Shown here piece by piece: positions 48,238 through 56,657 of a stretch of 64,000 nucleotides of DNA (its first letter is position 1; every line of letters begins with the position of its first letter). The notes beneath the pieces are model-generated. The model searched no databases, was not told the DNA's origin, and worked only from the letters and a program-made list of their open reading frames with translations. This DNA comes from Escherichia phage FEC19. The translations under genes and the position numbers were made by a program. Where the stretch lies: sequence record MH816966. The stretch is one strand, 5' to 3'.

Positions 48238-49656
48238 TTATTCCCCTTTCAACCAAGCTTCAAACGCTTCGTCAGTTGCTGCAGAATCCGCAGCGGCCTT
48301 TTGTTTTGCGACTACACGCTGTTTTTGACCGTGTTCAACGCCGCGCAGATAATTATCCACCACGTCAAACTCAGCACCATCAACGCACTTCAAGCCTAAC
48401 TTTTTAGCGCCATATTTCGCTACGGACTTGGAGTCCATAGTTGCATGATCAAAGGCACCAACAACTTTAGACAGGCGCTGGTAGAGGCTATTCTTACGAG
48501 CAGAATCAGCGTAGAAAGCAGCAACTGCTGAATCAGATGCCATTGAGTGTTCCCCTTTTGCTGGACCTGGCGACGCTTTCGCCGCTTTTGTCGGTTTGTC
48601 ATCTTTTTCGACCGAAGCCCCCTTTACGTTGCTGTTTTGCAGGCCGCTAACCACATCTTCAGCTTTGTCGCAAGGTGATACATCTTCAGCCTTGACTTCA
48701 ACTTCTTCGTCTTTGACTTCGGCTTCAACTTCTTCTTCATCACCTACCGCGCCACCTTTCAGTTTTGCAATAAGTGCTTCGATTTGGCTGATCAGTTGCG
48801 GAAGCTCGCCGCCAGCGTGAGATTCAGTTTCAACTTCAAACTTCTCTTCACCTTCTGGAGTCTCTTCAGCTTCTGCTTTGACTTCTGGATCAACCATCAC
48901 TTCTTCACGTTCTTCGGTTGAATCCTTCTCTTCTGCTTTCACTTCAACTTCGTCCTGATGAGCAGCTTCGGTGCTCTCTTCATTCAGAAATTGTTCGAGC
49001 GCAGGGATCAGTGACTTCAGCTGTTCAACAGCATTATCACGCGCTTTACCTTTTAACGGTTTTGGCATGTCTAAATCCTCGTTGGATGGTGTTACAGTCG
49101 TCAAACAAAGATGGTCAAAGCAACGACCATCCAGCACCCGTGCACCTGGTACTCGACCAACGTCCACGAGAGCAATGTGGTTGCCGCGAAGAGTTGTCTG
49201 TACCACTTCATACGGCTGCCCGTCAAACTCTCCAGACTGTATGATGAATTCACAGTCATAGCCCAAAGACAAGTCAACCTTTCCAGAATCGATGGCTTTC
49301 TTCAGACGACGGCTAAAAACTTTAAGGTCGCCGCGCATCCATGGCTTGTCATAATAAACATTGCCAGTTAGAACGCCATCAACGCCATACTCTTCGGGTG
49401 CTGTGTTATCCTCATCACCTTCGAATCCAGAAAGCATTTCGTGATTGTCGATGAAAGGGATATTTTTGAATGAATCTATCGCTTCGGGGTCTTTCACCGC
49501 TGACTCTGGGCGATAAACTTTTACGATGCGATTCGGATCACCATCAAGTCCAACCTGACCTGCAGAATAATCAAAAATGCCAAATGACGAAATGGGACAA
49601 CCCACAATCGTCAAGAATCCATTTTTGTCAATTTCGCGTGCCGTTTGCATTCGCAT
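48238..49656 (-). CDS. prohead protease/scaffolding-like protein
   Basis: Globular N-terminal about 180 aa followed by a long acidic Glu/Val/Lys-rich helical region (EEVEAEVKDEEVEVKAED). Confidence 0.55.
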   Translation of the reverse strand: MRMQTAREIDKNGFLTIVGCPISSFGIFDYSAGQVGLDGDPNRIVKVYRPESAVKDPEAIDSFKNIPFIDNHEMLSGFEGDEDNTAPEEYGVDGVLTGNVYYDKPWMRGDLKVFSRRLKKAIDSGKVDLSLGYDCEFIIQSGEFDGQPYEVVQTTLRGNHIALVDVGRVPGARVLDGRCFDHLCLTTVTPSNEDLDMPKPLKGKARDNAVEQLKSLIPALEQFLNEESTEAAHQDEVEVKAEEKDSTEEREEVMVDPEVKAEAEETPEGEEKFEVETESHAGGELPQLISQIEALIAKLKGGAVGDEEEVEAEVKDEEVEVKAEDVSPCDKAEDVVSGLQNSNVKGASVEKDDKPTKAAKASPGPAKGEHSMASDSAVAAFYADSARKNSLYQRLSKVVGAFDHATMDSKSVAKYGAKKLGLKCVDGAEFDVVDNYLRGVEHGQKQRVVAKQKAAADSAATDEAFEAWLKGE

Positions 49657-50221: not shown

Positions 50222-51142
50222 TTAGTTCAACTTAATTGCGGTGATCTGTCCGTAAACGGTAGATGTCAATGCGTCTGTGCATTGATAGTTTAGATACACA
50301 TTGCCAGGCGCGGCAAGAGTAATTATCTTTGTTGGAATATTGCCGCCGAAACGACCTGCAGCCCGAATGCCAGCAGACATCGTGAATGCATCATCCGTAA
50401 TATCTGAATTACTTGTTGACAATTTTACTGTAATTCCGGTATTCGCTTGAACTCCTTCTGTTGCGACAGTCAACTGACTTGCTGTCACAAGCCATTTCCC
50501 TGCAGGCAGGTTTAATGTTGCCAGATTCACCAGAGTTGTCGGAGGATTGCTTACACTATTGCTTGTGTTTTGCACATTGCTTGCAGCAGCATTAAGAACT
50601 CCAGAACCATCAATTGATAGTGTCGTTCCTACTTTTACGCCACCCAAGGTTGATGCTGATGCAATCGGTAACGAGTATTGAGTAACACTAATTGTACCGT
50701 CACCTGCAACACTTATGCCACTTCCTATCTTGACACCGCCGAGAACAGAAGCCGTTGCCGCTGGTAACGTGTATTGGTTGCCGCTGGATTTGACTACCTT
50801 AACGGCGACAGCATTCTTGGACCCTCCAGACTCCATGCCTATAATCACCGCTTCTCCAAAAGCGATGGTGATTGTAGATGCAGTTAAACCAGTCTGCACG
50901 TCTGTTATGTTCATTTTGGGAACTGAAAGTGTCAGATTCGGCTTGCTGGTAGAATCGCCATCATTACCGATCATAAAGAATTGACCAACTGAATTGTATC
51001 CAGACGCCAATGGCGGACTCAATGGAACAATCAGGTTTTTATCGGATGTAAATTCTGAAACAATCGCCAAACCGTTAGCATATACAGCAGGCAATACTGG
51101 CGTTTGTCCAGATAGAGGAAACGTGCTGATTGGTATCGTCAT
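50222..51142 (-). CDS. fibre-repeat structural protein in the head module
   Basis: Internal repeats LPAATASVLGGVKIGSGISVAGDGTISV and LPIASASTLGGVKVGTTLSIDGSGVLN of the phage fibre-repeat type; start refined to MTIPISTFPL. Confidence 0.55.
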   Translation of the reverse strand: MTIPISTFPLSGQTPVLPAVYANGLAIVSEFTSDKNLIVPLSPPLASGYNSVGQFFMIGNDGDSTSKPNLTLSVPKMNITDVQTGLTASTITIAFGEAVIIGMESGGSKNAVAVKVVKSSGNQYTLPAATASVLGGVKIGSGISVAGDGTISVTQYSLPIASASTLGGVKVGTTLSIDGSGVLNAAASNVQNTSNSVSNPPTTLVNLATLNLPAGKWLVTASQLTVATEGVQANTGITVKLSTSNSDITDDAFTMSAGIRAAGRFGGNIPTKIITLAAPGNVYLNYQCTDALTSTVYGQITAIKLN

Positions 51143-51149
51143 AATGACC

Positions 51150-52001
51150 TCAAATGATTGGTATTTTTCTGCACTTGCAGTGTATTGCCCATCCAGGAGG
51201 ACCGATGTCACCCTTTTTGAACTTCAATTCGCCGCCAACTTCCCATAGGCGCTTGTCATCAAGTTTAAATCTCATTCCGTCGACGTGTTCATGAGAGATT
51301 CGCGGCTCCTTTCCTGCTCCTGAGTGCGCCCATTCAAATTCTTCAACTCCATTCTGGCGCATTCTTTCATCGCTCAGAACGCAATACAATTTGCTTGTCT
51401 GGTCTTTGGCGATTAAGTCGACTCTCTTTGCAGAGAAGTGTTTTACGTTTCGCAGCGCCGCCTGAATGCCTGACGTGCCTTGCTGGGCTGGGTCGGGCGA
51501 AGTCAGTGAAAGCATAACTGCTTCGTACACTCTGTTGTGAATATCCTCGCCAACCTTGGTCACTAGAGTCGTGTTGAACGTCTCGCTTGTTCTAAGAGTG
51601 TTCTCAACGAATTTGTTATATGTGGCCTTTGGCGCTTCTATGCCTGCGGACTTAAGGCTGGCGAATGTAGCAGAAGTGGCACCCTTTTCGACCGACTTGA
51701 TAAAATCAGCGGCAATCTTCGACCCAACACGCGCAAACGCCTTTGCCCATTTCAGCTGCAGACGTTTCATAAGAGTTTGGAATGTTGAATCAGCAGAGTC
51801 TTGCGCAAAGAACTTCTGCACCTGCTTCTTTTCAAGCCATTCTGAAATGCCTGCCTGATAGTCATCAATCATCGCATAGCAAAGACCTTTCATCTCACGA
51901 CGGTAGGCCATCGCAATAGCGTTTGATGGGATTATCGGACTGCCGCGCCCGATTCTATCGGGTGAGCGGCGTTCACGTTTTTTCGAAGCTTTAAAAGCCA
52001 T
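51150..52001 (-). CDS. minor head/head morphogenesis protein (Mu F-like)
   Basis: Position directly after the portal; start refined to MAFKASKKRERR, 1 nt after the portal stop. Confidence 0.6.
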   Translation of the reverse strand: MAFKASKKRERRSPDRIGRGSPIIPSNAIAMAYRREMKGLCYAMIDDYQAGISEWLEKKQVQKFFAQDSADSTFQTLMKRLQLKWAKAFARVGSKIAADFIKSVEKGATSATFASLKSAGIEAPKATYNKFVENTLRTSETFNTTLVTKVGEDIHNRVYEAVMLSLTSPDPAQQGTSGIQAALRNVKHFSAKRVDLIAKDQTSKLYCVLSDERMRQNGVEEFEWAHSGAGKEPRISHEHVDGMRFKLDDKRLWEVGGELKFKKGDIGPPGWAIHCKCRKIPII

Positions 52002-52002
52002 A

Positions 52003-54378
52003 TCAACCTTGCTTCGGTGAATTAGTAGGATTATTGAGTGCTCCGTATGCTTGAGAGCAATCACCCTTCAACCACTCTTTGAATGAGTTCACATCTAATT
52101 CGTGGATTGAGTCGAATCCGTTCCAACCGTTACCAAATGATGCCTGATAAGCTTCTTTTGCTTCTTCTGCTGAATCGAATCCAAGCATGCACTTGTGTTC
52201 ATCGAACTCGCCAGAGTAGTTATCGTTTTGGTTCACGATAAAGACCTTCGGCGACTTCAGATTTGTGCCAACAAAGCAGTCGACTTCATCGCCGTCCGCG
52301 CCCTTGGTGCCTTTGATGAATCCGTAGTGGTGCGGCATCTTGACTGCCCATTCACCGTCAAGGCTGTTTCCTCTACGGATGCTGTTGCGAGGATTCTCAA
52401 TCCCAAGAATCAGCCCATGCAACTTCATCTTAGGTAATGATGCTGCGTCCATCTTTCCAACGTTGTGTCGTAAGTTGACGACATTACCTTTGACGCTTGG
52501 AAGGGTAGACGGTTGCACCGACCGTGAATCTTTTTGAGGGTCAAAATCCACATCCTGACCTTCTTTCAGGTAGTAATCCGCAATACCCTCCAGACCTTCT
52601 TTCAACTGCGTTAGGACATCAACCTGATGGCTTGATTCATCGTCGGTATCGTCCATGTTGATTTCGACAGGCGCTCTGTCAGGGTTTTCCGCCAACTCAC
52701 CGCGCGCGGCACCTTCTGGCATAATGCCTGTTTCACTGTAGAACTGGCCGCCCATCTTAACGACATCAGCTTTCGCCTGTTCAATATCGGCCTTACCTTG
52801 TAGGACTTCACCAGCAGACTTGCCAAGCAATGCCATATTCTCTGGAGACATCCCTGGTGTTTCTTCTGCCGCATCTTCCGGCAGACGGTTGTAGCCGCTG
52901 TTTTTGTCGTCTTTGATGCGGTCGCGCTCTTCATCAGGAGAAATGACGCCAGCATCAATAAGAGTTTTGCCAGTGTTGGCTCGCTTATCATTGATTTCTG
53001 CAAGTTGAGTAGCAGTAAGTGAGCCAACTGGTTCCCATGCAACCTTAACATCGACATCCACCCCTTCTGATTTGAGAAGGATTTTGTAATGGCGGTCGAG
53101 AATTTTTGTCAGGTCATGCTGCTGGCACGTTTCCAACTCTTCGTGATAGCTGACCATCTCGAATTCACCAGTGGCGTTAAAGCCTTTTGGCGAAGTCCCA
53201 AGCAGTTTGGTCGACGGAACTTTTGCGATTGCGGCCACCAGCTGGTACTGGTTCATGATGATGCTGTCGAAGTCTGACAAGTTGATATCAAACTGGTCCA
53301 TCTCTTCTTTTTGGCCAAGCACTTTGACTGCATAGTTGTCGCGGTACTTGATCCACATCATCAGACGTTCTGCAAAAGACCGCTCATTGGCAATCGCCTT
53401 GTCAACGTCGGTCCGCAGCGTGGTTGTACGCTTGGACATCGCCAGCAATGGCGCTTCGTTAGCGGTACGTTCAGCGGCATAGATGCGTTCATAAATCTGC
53501 TGAGTCAGAGGAATGCCGCCGTAAATATAAGTTGGCTTGAGAATATCAGCTGGCTCATCATTGCGCAAGATGATGAGGTGACTTCGATGATAACGTTGTC
53601 CACTGATCACCCAGTATTCTGGATCATAGAAGTGCTGTGATGCAGGGTCGGCGGTGTTTTCAGACGTCAAAAATGGCATCATCCAATAAGGGTCGACCTG
53701 AATGATTCCCTTATAAGACCCCTTTGTCACACCATCAATGTTAAAAGGCTTGCTGTAATATTCTGGGTCATCGCTACGCACATCAAATATGATGACGCGG
53801 ATACCAAAAATATTTTTGAATCGTTCGGCTTCAACTAAGTGCTCTTTGATATTAAATTCTTTATCAATTTGCTTTAGGCGTTCGCTTGCCTGTACTGACA
53901 ATTCTGACTCAGAACTGGATTTGACTTCCCATCCTTTACGGACCGCATCGCGGCCTACCATGGAACAAGCCTTGTTCACCAGCCAGTGCTGCGCGATGAT
54001 GGCGCAAGCTTGATATCCGATAAATGATTGCGATAAGTACCAGTTTTGCAACTGAATAGGTACTGTGTATGGGTTGACTTGCCCTTCTGAACTGATGTTC
54101 TTTAAGGCATTATCCATAACTTTTTTGGATACTGTTGCGGAATCGACTGAGCGACCTTTTATGATTGCAACACCATCGCCATTAATATCAGGCTCATATA
54201 AAGGGAAGTCATCAACCGTTTTAAAGGTCGGTCGATTGCTTTCAGTCTTTTCCCAGCGTTGACCGCTGCCGCGCCTTTCAAGGCGTTCAAACGGTGCCAA
54301 TGGGTCGCCTGGCGGCATCTCCGCTGGTTCGGCTTCTGGTTGCGTCTTCTCCCAGAGTTTTATGCCAAGAATTTTCAT
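52003..54378 (-). CDS. portal protein with C-terminal inorganic pyrophosphatase-like domain
   Basis: Portal-like central region; last about 160 aa carry HHYGFIKGTKGADGDEVDCFVG and GFDSAEEAKEAYQASF, resembling family I pyrophosphatase; start at ATG 54378 (MKILGIK) with GGTGG RBS. Confidence 0.65.
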   Translation of the reverse strand: MKILGIKLWEKTQPEAEPAEMPPGDPLAPFERLERRGSGQRWEKTESNRPTFKTVDDFPLYEPDINGDGVAIIKGRSVDSATVSKKVMDNALKNISSEGQVNPYTVPIQLQNWYLSQSFIGYQACAIIAQHWLVNKACSMVGRDAVRKGWEVKSSSESELSVQASERLKQIDKEFNIKEHLVEAERFKNIFGIRVIIFDVRSDDPEYYSKPFNIDGVTKGSYKGIIQVDPYWMMPFLTSENTADPASQHFYDPEYWVISGQRYHRSHLIILRNDEPADILKPTYIYGGIPLTQQIYERIYAAERTANEAPLLAMSKRTTTLRTDVDKAIANERSFAERLMMWIKYRDNYAVKVLGQKEEMDQFDINLSDFDSIIMNQYQLVAAIAKVPSTKLLGTSPKGFNATGEFEMVSYHEELETCQQHDLTKILDRHYKILLKSEGVDVDVKVAWEPVGSLTATQLAEINDKRANTGKTLIDAGVISPDEERDRIKDDKNSGYNRLPEDAAEETPGMSPENMALLGKSAGEVLQGKADIEQAKADVVKMGGQFYSETGIMPEGAARGELAENPDRAPVEINMDDTDDESSHQVDVLTQLKEGLEGIADYYLKEGQDVDFDPQKDSRSVQPSTLPSVKGNVVNLRHNVGKMDAASLPKMKLHGLILGIENPRNSIRRGNSLDGEWAVKMPHHYGFIKGTKGADGDEVDCFVGTNLKSPKVFIVNQNDNYSGEFDEHKCMLGFDSAEEAKEAYQASFGNGWNGFDSIHELDVNSFKEWLKGDCSQAYGALNNPTNSPKQG

Positions 54379-54540
54379 TGTTAACGCCACCTGACAGTGA
54401 AAGGGAATCAATCTATATTATAAATATTCATGTGTTTGTAAGCAAATGATATGTATGGTGATCATAAATAGTTCATAAAATATTTTGCTTTTGTATCATT
54501 TTGAGTTATATTTTAGTTAACCAAACGAAAGGAGATTGAA

Positions 54541-54957
54541 ATGAGCACAACAATTGTATTTGTCGTCCTACACAACGGCGAAGTCGTTAACGTATGCGAA
54601 TATGAAGAACTGGCAAAGGCCACTGCTGCGCGATACGAAGGTGCTACTATTGACCCGTGGATTTTAGATGCGCGCAACGTCTTGCAGGCGACTTTGGATG
54701 AGTGGCTGTTGGGTCGCAAAGTCTATCCAGTAGACGACATCGACTCAATTCAAGGTGAAACAGTATATTTTGAAGATGAATGCGTTCGCGGCATCGGCAA
54801 ATTTATGGGATTGTGCCCATCTTCATCCAAAAATAAATTTTATCGTATTCAAGTTGAAGAAAACGATATGTTTGACAAAGTTACGCGCTCGATTGTTCCT
54901 GACGGCGGCACTCCAATCTTTATGGCAGAATCAGACATCAAGGGGATCATCAAATGA
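54541..54957 (+). CDS. hypothetical protein (138 aa)
   Basis: Strong AAGGAG RBS; opposite strand to the flanking portal and terminase genes. Confidence 0.5.
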   Translation: MSTTIVFVVLHNGEVVNVCEYEELAKATAARYEGATIDPWILDARNVLQATLDEWLLGRKVYPVDDIDSIQGETVYFEDECVRGIGKFMGLCPSSSKNKFYRIQVEENDMFDKVTRSIVPDGGTPIFMAESDIKGIIK

Positions 54958-55193
54958 GAACGTTAACCGAACTCGATGTTTTGAAAGACGTTGCAGCCGC
55001 GCTGGGCGTAGAATTATCCGAAAAGGCGACACTAGGTGCTTTGCGTCGGGATTTACTCGAAGCTGTTGACCGCAACGATTTTGACCGTAAGTGTATGCAA
55101 AAGAAGATTCGGCAGGCGGTGAGAGCGGGTAAGCGATTCCGTGCCAGGTCGTTTGCCGCAAGAAAGCTTGACCTTCAGCACGGAATGCTTTGA
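54954..55193 (+). CDS. hypothetical basic protein (79 aa)
   Basis: ATGA-coupled to the upstream gene; Arg/Lys-rich C-terminus. Confidence 0.45.
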   Translation: MRTLTELDVLKDVAAALGVELSEKATLGALRRDLLEAVDRNDFDRKCMQKKIRQAVRAGKRFRARSFAARKLDLQHGML

Positions 55194-55196
55194 TTG

Positions 55197-56657
55197 TTAA
55201 AGGTTAGAGAAGAAGCCGGATGCTGCAACGATTGGTTTCATCAATGCCATGATTGCTGCGTCCGCTTTGTTAGGTGATTTGACTCCACGCTTTGCCATAT
55301 CCTTTTTGGATTCAACTTTGAACTTGCCAAGAACAGACGTATCTTTGCGCGGCGCTGACATCTCAAAAAGAAACGTCTCAATCTCTTCAGTAGTCCAAGC
55401 TGGAATCCCAAGTTCCGGTATACCATCGGTGTCGATTGAAATCAATTCATCAGTCGGATATACGGCTTGCCCAGTTGCATATTCGTATGTCTTTCTGAAT
55501 CTCTCTGCAATTTCAGTCCACTTTTGCGCTTTTATGTTTGCGAAATGGTCTTTATTGAGTATTTCAACGTGTGGTAGCTCAAGAAAAACGTCATCAGGAT
55601 CATCAACAGACCCTTGCGCGTTGAACGCATTAAATTCGATTCTTGGAAATGATGGATTTTCATGTATTGCATACTCGTTTAGTTCATCAAACTTTGAACC
55701 AGCAAAAGCGCCGACACCGATGGCGTCATAAGTTATGGAAGCGCCGAATGTAAGCGCATCTTTCCAAACTCCGCTTGCCGATTTCAACAATTCATCTTCC
55801 AGGCCTTCCCACGTCTTGATGCCGCGCAATACGTTTCCTGTGACGAATGCAGTGGCGTTAAGGTCGTCGCCATCGTCCGCTACGTCAAAGCCTATACGGT
55901 TAGACCCTGACAAACTCCAGCCCAGCGTTGGGTGCTTGTGGAGATTAAGCGCGGCCTTAACGAATGCGCGGTTGATTACAGATTTGTCGCCGCCAGTCTT
56001 CGGCACGCCGCCATAAACGTGCTCTGCCTTTTTCGGGTCACGCTCGTACATGCCTGCAATAACGTCCAACATTGTTTGCGACAAGAATGGATTATCTTGC
56101 CAGTTTATCTTTTTAACAATTGCATTCTTCGGCGGTCGCATAACAAAGTTTTGATATACGAAATCGGCCTCTTCATCAGGGTTAAAGATGATCCATATTT
56201 CGGACCCTTCTTTACGTATTGTCGGCTCAATAATGTCCCACTGTTCTTCAGTAAGCGCGTGCGCTTCTTCCAGCCAAAGAACATCAACGCCTTCTGTTGA
56301 TTTGATTTCATCAACGTTACGTGCGATACCATAAAATAGAAATTCAGATTTAGTTCTTTTGTGTTCGATAGAGTTCTTTAATAAATTGAACTCATCTTTA
56401 AAATCAGAAATCTCTATTTTGTCTTTTAATAGTGTATATACAGATTCAGAAATCTTGTTCTGGAATTGTCGAACGCAAAGGAATTTTAATTTGAAGTTTG
56501 CCGCCAAATAAATAGCAAAACCAGCGGCATCGTGCGATTTGGAAGATGCACGACCGCCGTATATTACTTTGTATCGCGCTTTTGTCTTCCAGACTTCTTT
56601 TAAAGCAGGATTCAACTGGTACATGAATTTCCAATTATGTGTTAATATTTTATTCAT
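55197..56657 (-). CDS. terminase large subunit
   Basis: 486 aa; Walker A YGGRASSKSH near the N-terminus and a C-terminal nuclease-like half. Confidence 0.85.
   Translation of the reverse strand: MNKILTHNWKFMYQLNPALKEVWKTKARYKVIYGGRASSKSHDAAGFAIYLAANFKLKFLCVRQFQNKISESVYTLLKDKIEISDFKDEFNLLKNSIEHKRTKSEFLFYGIARNVDEIKSTEGVDVLWLEEAHALTEEQWDIIEPTIRKEGSEIWIIFNPDEEADFVYQNFVMRPPKNAIVKKINWQDNPFLSQTMLDVIAGMYERDPKKAEHVYGGVPKTGGDKSVINRAFVKAALNLHKHPTLGWSLSGSNRIGFDVADDGDDLNATAFVTGNVLRGIKTWEGLEDELLKSASGVWKDALTFGASITYDAIGVGAFAGSKFDELNEYAIHENPSFPRIEFNAFNAQGSVDDPDDVFLELPHVEILNKDHFANIKAQKWTEIAERFRKTYEYATGQAVYPTDELISIDTDGIPELGIPAWTTEEIETFLFEMSAPRKDTSVLGKFKVESKKDMAKRGVKSPNKADAAIMALMKPIVAASGFFSNL

Follow-up and report, generated by a model that had tools for sequence, protein, structure and literature searches.

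The InPase domain was defined by Iyer, Burroughs, Anand, de Souza and Aravind in 2017 (J Bacteriol 199:e00245-17, PMC5512222) as a monophyletic clade of type I pyrophosphatases (PPases) that is found mainly in phage polyvalent proteins. The same paper states that the domain is also fused to portal proteins, with BcepF1 YP_001039808.1 as the example and with injection into the host as the proposed fate, and it suggests that InPase either clears inorganic pyrophosphate (PPi) or attacks a nucleotide-like substrate (PMC5512222). In this work, we describe a fusion of this type in Escherichia phage FEC19 (record MH816966), a member of Wifcevirus, a group of E. coli myophages of about 68-72 kb. The DNA analysed is a stretch of 64,000 nucleotides, read as one strand from 5' to 3', which we call the window; the gene in question encodes a portal protein whose C-terminal part is an InPase domain (Table 1). 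Residues are numbered according to an 802-amino-acid (aa) version of the protein, which has an upstream start, except where the 791-aa version is stated.

The first-pass annotation of the window was aware of no description of a portal with a pyrophosphatase-like C-terminus, and the suggestion of novelty has to be withdrawn. The portal fusion was published in 2017, and because that paper, PF18823 and PHROG 4660 catalogue the domain and its fusion to portals, the architecture is already known and the gene is a further example from a family that has been sampled well; it adds no new kind of system. In particular, PHROG 4660 covers the protein from end to end (1267 bits). One GenBank record, that of Luteibacter phage Pluto, names the orthologue 'inorganic pyrophosphatase', and relatives in GenBank label the 791-aa product 'portal protein' or 'minor head protein'.

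The reading that we prefer, and in which we place moderate confidence, is that the domain is a virion-carried, divalent-metal-dependent phosphoanhydride hydrolase that would be used at the start of infection, with the portal serving as its packaging anchor. The portal family to which it belongs is that of Pbunavirus and Wifcevirus phages, which are used in therapy cocktails and for which high-resolution virion structures are available; the last ~240 portal residues are invisible and unnamed in the published structures.

Identity and conservation of the C-terminal domain

The first-pass annotation assigned a pyrophosphatase-like domain to positions 52003-52431, that is, residues 661-802, on the basis of the segments DGDEVDC, HHYGFIKGT (residues 694-702) and GFDSAEEAKEAYQASF (residues 744-759), all of which stand where it had placed them. 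A hidden Markov model search identified the domain as a member of the Pfam family InPase (PF18823); the match coincides with this interval, has an E-value of 8.3e-46 and a score of 155.6 bits (cut-off 26.8), and covers profile positions 12-135 of 135. The models of the classical enzyme gave lower scores: PF00719 reached 19.3 bits with the whole protein and 22.1 bits with the domain alone, against a cut-off of 23.5, and spans residues 690-719 only, and the NCBIfam PPase equivalogs NF002578 and NF002317 reached 14-18 bits against cut-offs of 200-246.

The family I signature, which we take to be D-[SGDN]-D-[PE]-[LIVMF]-D-[LIVMGAC] (PROSITE PS00387-type), has a single match in all six frames of the translated 64-kb window, at DGDEVDC. 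Around this motif, hhalign aligns residues 692-715 with residues 51-74 of E. coli Ppa at 46% identity and a probability of 84-91%, which upholds the parallel that had been drawn between HHYGFIKGT...DGDEVDC and this part of the E. coli enzyme; the Ppa sequence in the alignments was confirmed to be identical to that of PDB 4um4. The comparison was run in several variants, using InPase profiles of 12 and 163 sequences, a single PPase or an alignment of 121 PPases, and either low mact or the global mode, and in all of these the confidence outside residues 692-715 was near zero. Extended hhalign alignments omit the E. coli D102-A-K104 strand and pair FDEHK with residues 116-121; because they disagree with the strand-order mapping described below, they were not used. 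When E. coli Ppa was used as the query, a protein search brought up relatives of 82-99% identity and nothing else.

The fold was examined in an AlphaFold2 (AF2) model of the last 175 residues, in which the predicted local distance difference test score (pLDDT) exceeds 90 over the domain. In a Foldseek search against PDB, the top 50 hits were family I PPases only, with a probability of up to 1.00. The modelled domain consists of seven strands, a helix, a strand and a helix, with an extra short N-terminal strand and C-terminal helix, and it has the PPase fold of an OB-like barrel and two helices. The order of these elements is the same as that of the E. coli enzyme, the loops of the domain being shorter. 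One parallel of the first-pass annotation is not supported, namely that between GFDSAEEAKEAYQASF and E. coli GWENAEAAKAEIVASF: the stretch has a HMMER score of -2.8, and by element order in the model its helix would match PPase helix A, whereas E. coli GWENAEAAKAEIVASF lies in the C-terminal helix B. The identification of the C-terminal ~125 residues as a pyrophosphatase-type domain is supported by the InPase match and by the fold.

The best hits supplied 163 copies of the domain, in which conservation reaches at least 90% at 24 positions; the FEC19 protein has the conserved residue at every one of these, including E672, N673, R679, W688, Y696, G697, D706, D708, D711, Q728, D737, E738, H739, K740, Y755 and W780. 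The residues that are invariant in the family (the E-N of IENP, R, W, Y-G, D-G-D-x-x-D, Q, F-D-E-H-K, Y and W) are all present, and they are likewise invariant in 61 portal fusions. Within the Asp triad, D706 is conserved in 161/163 copies, D708 in 154/163 and D711 in 163/163; the corresponding counts in FDEHK are 162/163 for D737, 163/163 for E738 and 161/162 for K740.

The polar active site of E. coli PPase is made up of E20, K29, E31, R43, Y51, Y55, D65, D67, D70, D97, D102, K104, Y141 and K142. The hhalign alignment is confident for Y55 (Y696) and for D65, D67 and D70, and the order of strands in the model makes FDEHK the probable counterpart of D102 plus K104. When the pairing is extended by the order of elements, E672 would correspond to E20, R679 to K29, E738 to D102 and K740 to K104, and Y755, on the first helix, is possibly the counterpart of Y141. 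To judge from the sequence, then, the metal-binding core (E672, Y696, D706, D708, D711, D737/E738 and K740) is retained.

A genuine gene fusion, and presence of the domain in the virion

All of the seven Wifcevirus genomes that we compared contain the same uninterrupted 802-codon frame, with no internal stop. More widely, 27 phage records align with the 2.4-kb interval in one piece each, at 92-97% nucleotide identity, and PF06381 and PF18823 occur together in 120/120 of the best full-length homologues, which lie on phage-sized contigs of 65-74 kb. The fusion is also present in Pbunavirus, in BcepF1 and in Serratia, Xanthomonas and Luteibacter phages. The domain is under strong purifying selection, the ratio of nonsynonymous to synonymous polymorphism (pN/pS) in the seven Wifcevirus genomes being 0.023, with 0.012 in the portal core and 0.027 in the linker.

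Other gene arrangements and origins were considered and rejected. Some records list 'hypothetical protein x2' for this region, which might be taken for a split gene, but the second feature merely overlaps the start of the next coding sequence (CDS). A nested internal start that would give free InPase was dismissed because no convincing Shine-Dalgarno sequence precedes M654 or M662. A recent capture of the host ppa gene was discarded because the domain resembles E. coli Ppa only in the active-site core and falls within a large clade that is specific to phages.

Using tblastn, the domain was found in 469 cultured-phage genomes (294 of Pseudomonas, 70 of Vibrio and 25 of Escherichia, with Serratia, Xanthomonas, Burkholderia and others as further hosts). 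A HMMER search of the full library placed InPase in 11,203 clusters at 50% identity, 9,107 of them at E 1e-10 or better. Many of the proteins in these clusters are polyvalent proteins of 2,000-6,400 aa, and InPase matches PHROGs that are annotated as DarB-like antirestriction, virion and giant proteins. Some metagenomic homologues carry a further domain after InPase: at ~50% identity, P0016, P0176, P0180, P0228 and P0261 have an ADP-ribosyltransferase (ART) exotoxin domain (PF03496), and P0021 has a type IB topoisomerase (PF01028 / PF21338). Homologues with such an extra C-terminal domain reach 1,100-1,320 aa, and in this phage group the portal seems to serve generally for carrying effector domains.

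The full-length AF2 model shows, in order, a disordered N-terminus, a confident portal core, a long helix, a linker and a confident InPase domain. Orthologous portals have been solved for Pa193 (gp19, 9b41, E 4e-250) and E217 (gp19, 8fvh, E 1e-189); the alignment with 9b41 extends through the C-terminal domain, and the InPase part by itself gives E 1e-48. The solved portals are modelled over residues 94/97-528, and their barrel projects into the head (E217, PMC10329688; Pa193, 9B41). Residues 529-765 are without density in both E217 (PMC10329688) and Pa193, and the domain is unnamed in both papers. In the alignment, the long helix of the FEC19 protein falls opposite the last modelled part of the E217 chain, and it is equivalent to the barrel helix projecting into the head. 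Because the C-terminal barrel points into the head and the domain follows the barrel, twelve copies of the domain are tethered inside the capsid, on the side opposite the terminase.

Two stretches outside the portal core, the N-terminal region and the linker, are predicted to be largely disordered. In the 791-aa AF2 model, the N-terminal region has a pLDDT below 50 at residues 1-106; its mean top-residue frequency among 61 homologues is 0.36, and it is unseen in the cryo-electron microscopy maps of E217 (PMC10329688) and Pa193. In the linker, pLDDT is below 50 at residues 551-579 and 621-626, and a helix is predicted at 580-603 (791 numbering). The aligned interval containing the linker (residues 550-659) is 110 residues long here and 90-156 aa across the 61 homologues, with a mean top-residue frequency of 0.33, and it contains 21 D+E vs 10 K+R. 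The linker helix (residues 591-614, nt 52570-52641; DESSHQVDVLTQLKEGLEGIADYY) is amphipathic and is modelled with a pLDDT of 70-87, and a weakly conserved R-x-x-K-P-S/G-V motif is located directly before the InPase domain. The helix or the motif could be a docking or cleavage element.

The first-pass annotation had suggested virion mass spectrometry as a check on the domain, and suitable data have already been published. Necel et al. 2020 (PMC7048862) analysed CsCl-purified virions of the Wifcevirus phages vB_Eco4M-7 and ECML-117 by liquid chromatography-tandem mass spectrometry (LC-MS/MS) and found the portal by 20-22 peptides. The supplement to that paper (PMC7048862) lists LHGMILGIENPR, MPHHYGFIK, GADGDEVDCFVGPN[ML]K, VFI[IV]NQNDNYSGEFDEHK and CMLGFDSAEEAK from the domain, GDCSQAYGALNNPTNSPK from the C-terminal tail and several peptides from the linker. 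Since domain peptides are among these published virion peptides, the InPase domain is physically in the particle. At the other end of the protein, TQPEAEPAEMPPGDPLAPFER (aa 23-43) and TESNRPTFK were detected with 7-27 peptide-spectrum matches (PSMs) (PMC7048862). The authors of the Pa193 structure reported that the N-terminus was missed by LC-MS and suggested cleavage; in Wifcevirus virions, the N-terminus is retained, since the N-terminal peptides are detected.

The spectral counts are uneven along the protein. MPHHYGFIK has 172-174 PSMs and LHGMILGIENPR has 13-135, vs 1-4 for most portal-core peptides (PMC7048862 supplement), and the counts for InPase, linker and N-terminal peptides lie far above those for portal-core peptides. 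The excess could reflect accessible, flexible parts of the protein or a separate, more abundant cleaved species. For K8 (Pbunavirus), no portal-domain peptides were found among the peptide strings searched in the virion proteomics supplements.

Proposed function and alternative explanations

In the scheme that we infer for catalysis, substrate, cleavage, release and timing of action, the FEC19 protein would be a polyvalent protein in its minimal form, with two domains, of which the portal is the anchor for packaging. InPase would hang on the ~100-residue disordered acidic linker behind the barrel helix, twelve copies being enclosed with the DNA. The domain could reach the host cytoplasm only after a cut in the linker, which the prohead protease might make; the DUF2213 protein encoded downstream is a hypothetical candidate for the cleaving enzyme. 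Very early in infection, InPase would then dispose of PPi or of a pyrophosphate compound derived from a nucleotide, for instance one that signals defence or stress. This cargo logic is supported by the homologues with ART or topoisomerase IB domains, by the DarB-like PHROG matches and by the adjoining gene for MuF, the other classical effector anchor. Because the domain is physically in the particle, its substrate, its cleavage and its role in early infection can be tested directly with existing reagents.

Several points weigh against this reading. The positions expected for the counterparts of E31, R43, D97 and K142 are variable or unplaceable in the phage domain, and R43, E31 and K142 are the classical PPi-binding residues; because these positions vary, PPi is in doubt as the true substrate, and, on the sequence evidence, it may not be the substrate of the domain. 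Delivery is a further difficulty. In the post-ejection structure of E217, the portal is still in the capsid (PMC10329688), so that delivery requires cleavage of the linker; a tethered domain cannot reach the cell, and release is the weak step. A Pfam scan detected no peptidase domain in the portal-InPase protein itself, and shotgun mass spectrometry, by its nature, cannot separate full-length from cleaved portal. In addition, a literature search found no biochemical test of any InPase-family domain.

A bolder form of the proposal, which we consider unlikely, is that InPase is a counter-defence enzyme rather than a PPi-ase: the prohead protease would cut the linker, after which the domain would leave by the portal channel, before the DNA or together with it, and destroy a pyrophosphate-containing alarmone or immune messenger of the host within the first seconds of infection. 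If this were true, the portals of the Pbunavirus/Wifcevirus supergroup, including those of therapeutic phages, would carry anti-defence cargo.

The first-pass annotation had instead placed PPi hydrolysis at the packaging vertex; on this reading, a true inorganic pyrophosphatase would aid DNA packaging there. The explanation does not hold up, for reasons of topology as well as chemistry: the C-terminus comes after the barrel that points into the head, away from the terminase, and no substrate arises in the terminase reaction, in which ATP is split into ADP and Pi without any PPi. Although the family I signature and fold are present and the terminase docks onto the portal (Pa193 paper), PF00719 and the NCBIfam PPase equivalogs remain under their cut-offs, and InPase occurs mostly in non-portal polyvalent proteins, so that its role is not tied to packaging; we regard this explanation as very improbable. 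Hydrolysis of PPi might also take place before assembly, with unassembled portal-InPase acting as a cytoplasmic PPi sink that drives phage DNA and RNA synthesis and with encapsidation as an incidental outcome. We find this improbable, since the host already has an efficient, abundant PPase and the portal is a late gene of the structural operon, between the genes for the terminase large subunit (TerL) and MuF. The repeated linkage of InPase to portal or MuF anchors and to ART and DarB-like effectors also argues that encapsidation matters. What speaks for the sink is the conservation of the catalytic core, together with the proposal of Iyer et al. (PMC5512222), who list PPi clearance favouring replication or transcription as one option.

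The domain might also be a non-catalytic structural module that has kept no more than the fold of a PPase. It could act inside the head, where it would order the DNA above the barrel or cap it, or take part in assembly, as a scaffold or interaction domain; the twelve ~27 kDa copies of linker plus domain on the portal axis inside the head and the OB-like fold (PMC5512222) speak for such a role. The invariant residues in 163 diverse copies are, however, the metal-binding acidic residues, Lys and Tyr of PPases, these residues are conserved in non-portal contexts as well, and an acidic active site would be ill-suited to DNA binding; such a module is quite improbable. There is next to no chance that the long open reading frame (ORF) is an artefact in which a sequencing or assembly frameshift joined a portal gene to a separate pyrophosphatase gene, a concern raised by the first-pass annotation. 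Solo InPase proteins of 130-230 aa do exist in metagenomes, but the ORF has the same length in seven independently sequenced Wifcevirus genomes, the 27 matching records align in one piece, and the fusion recurs in the other phages named above and in all 120 best homologues. Mass spectrometry detects linker peptides between the two parts, no convincing internal ribosome-binding site and start precede the domain, and the artefact is refuted.

Genomic context and comparison with known systems

The mechanical ORF in the ORF list occupies 52003..54411 on the minus strand, encodes 802 aa and begins with TTG at 54411; a portal ORF of 791-802 aa, depending on whether TTG or ATG is taken as the start, therefore exists as the first-pass annotation had claimed. 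The ATG at 54378 has the sequence AGGTGG located 8 nt upstream and is the start used in GenBank records, where the 2376-nt CDS is annotated identically in Mansfield, ECO71P1, RCIP0319, SP13, vB_Eco4M-7 and Bas98. A TATAAT-like box (~54416-54421) precedes the gene. In a promoter/terminator scan around the portal gene, sites were no more frequent than in shuffled sequence.

The portal gene lies in a head-morphogenesis module, with TerL upstream and MuF, protease, cement and capsid downstream. Between the minus-strand terminase and portal genes, two small ORFs of 138 and 79 aa are found on the plus strand (54541-55193); neither has a Pfam match, and both are hypothetical in all relatives. On the other side, the stop codon of the portal and the ATG of MuF (52001) are separated by a 1-nt gap (TGAtATG), and the ribosome-binding site of MuF, AAGG, sits within the last portal codons (52003-52065; MuF start 51999-52001). 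In the seven Wifcevirus genomes, pS is 0.075 over the last 20 portal codons vs 0.35 in the adjoining InPase domain, and this low value is consistent with a constraint from dual coding and translation coupling. MuF is followed by a head-fibre-like gene, the DUF2213 protease/scaffold gene and the cement protein gene, and the capsid gene also belongs to the module. The match in the head-fibre-like ORF is to the phi29-type head fibre family, which is unusual in a capsid module of this kind; relatives have only hypothetical annotations for it.

Table 1. Features of the portal-InPase gene and its neighbours in the window
Feature	Residues	Position	Strand	Remarks
Terminase large subunit, upstream		55197..56657	-	PF04466 E 3e-37; annotated so in Mansfield
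Portal-InPase gene		52003..54378	-	791 aa from ATG 54378; stop TGA 52003-52005
N-terminal region	12-117	54061..54378	-	Predicted disordered, poorly conserved
Portal core, Phage_portal_3 PF06381	133-479	52975..54015	-	E 3.7e-88
Long C-terminal helix	523-561	52729..52845	-	AF2 helix 512-550 (791 numbering)
Flexible acidic linker	562-659	52435..52728	-	Mostly disordered in AF2
InPase domain PF18823	660-782	52066..52434	-	Minimal family-I-type pyrophosphatase fold
DGDEVDC	706-712	52276..52296	-	Putative metal-binding Asp triad D706, D708, D711 = E. coli D65, D67, D70
FDEHK	736-740	52192..52206	-	Invariant acidic pair and Lys, first in strand after hairpin
C-terminal tail	783-802	52006..52065	-	pLDDT <50; also holds ribosome-binding site of next gene
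MuF-like minor head / head morphogenesis protein, downstream		51150..52001	-	283 aa; PF04233 E 5e-7
Head-fibre-like ORF, downstream of MuF		50222-51211	-	329 aa; short PF11133 match, E 1.5e-7
DUF2213 protein		48238..49656	-	PF09979 E 5e-35; capsid maturation protease in Mansfield and MTx relatives

The closest described case is BcepF1 gp124 (YP_001039808.1, P0190), which has the same combination of PF06381 and PF18823 and is 53% identical over 97% of the protein, although it is longer (862 aa vs 791 aa) and comes from another host and genus. The published prediction for it is the same as ours, that is, packaging in the virion and perhaps injection (PMC5512222). The gp19 portals of the Pbunavirus phages E217 (8FVH) and Pa193 (9B41) are orthologous over the whole length, including the C-terminal domain, and these phages share with FEC19 the gene order TerL - portal - MuF - protease - cement - capsid. 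The two groups are complementary in the data available: the structures of E217 and Pa193 are solved but leave residues 529-765 unseen, whereas in Wifcevirus virion mass spectrometry covers the domain.

Compared with E. coli Ppa, the phage domain is smaller, with ~125 residues vs ~175 and shorter loops, and it is tethered to a structural protein, whereas Ppa is a free oligomeric enzyme. A different kind of likeness is offered by T4 Alt, a packaged and injected enzyme, in that the FEC19 protein, too, joins an enzymatic domain to a part that is incorporated into the head. This applies equally to the polyvalent and the MuF- or portal-anchored effectors of Iyer et al. 2017, and giant polyvalent proteins, DarB-like ones included, carry the same InPase domain. 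The FEC19 portal differs from these polyvalent proteins in having two domains only, in having no processing peptidase and in using the portal itself as the anchor; like them, it combines a packaging anchor (portal) and an effector domain (InPase) in one polypeptide.

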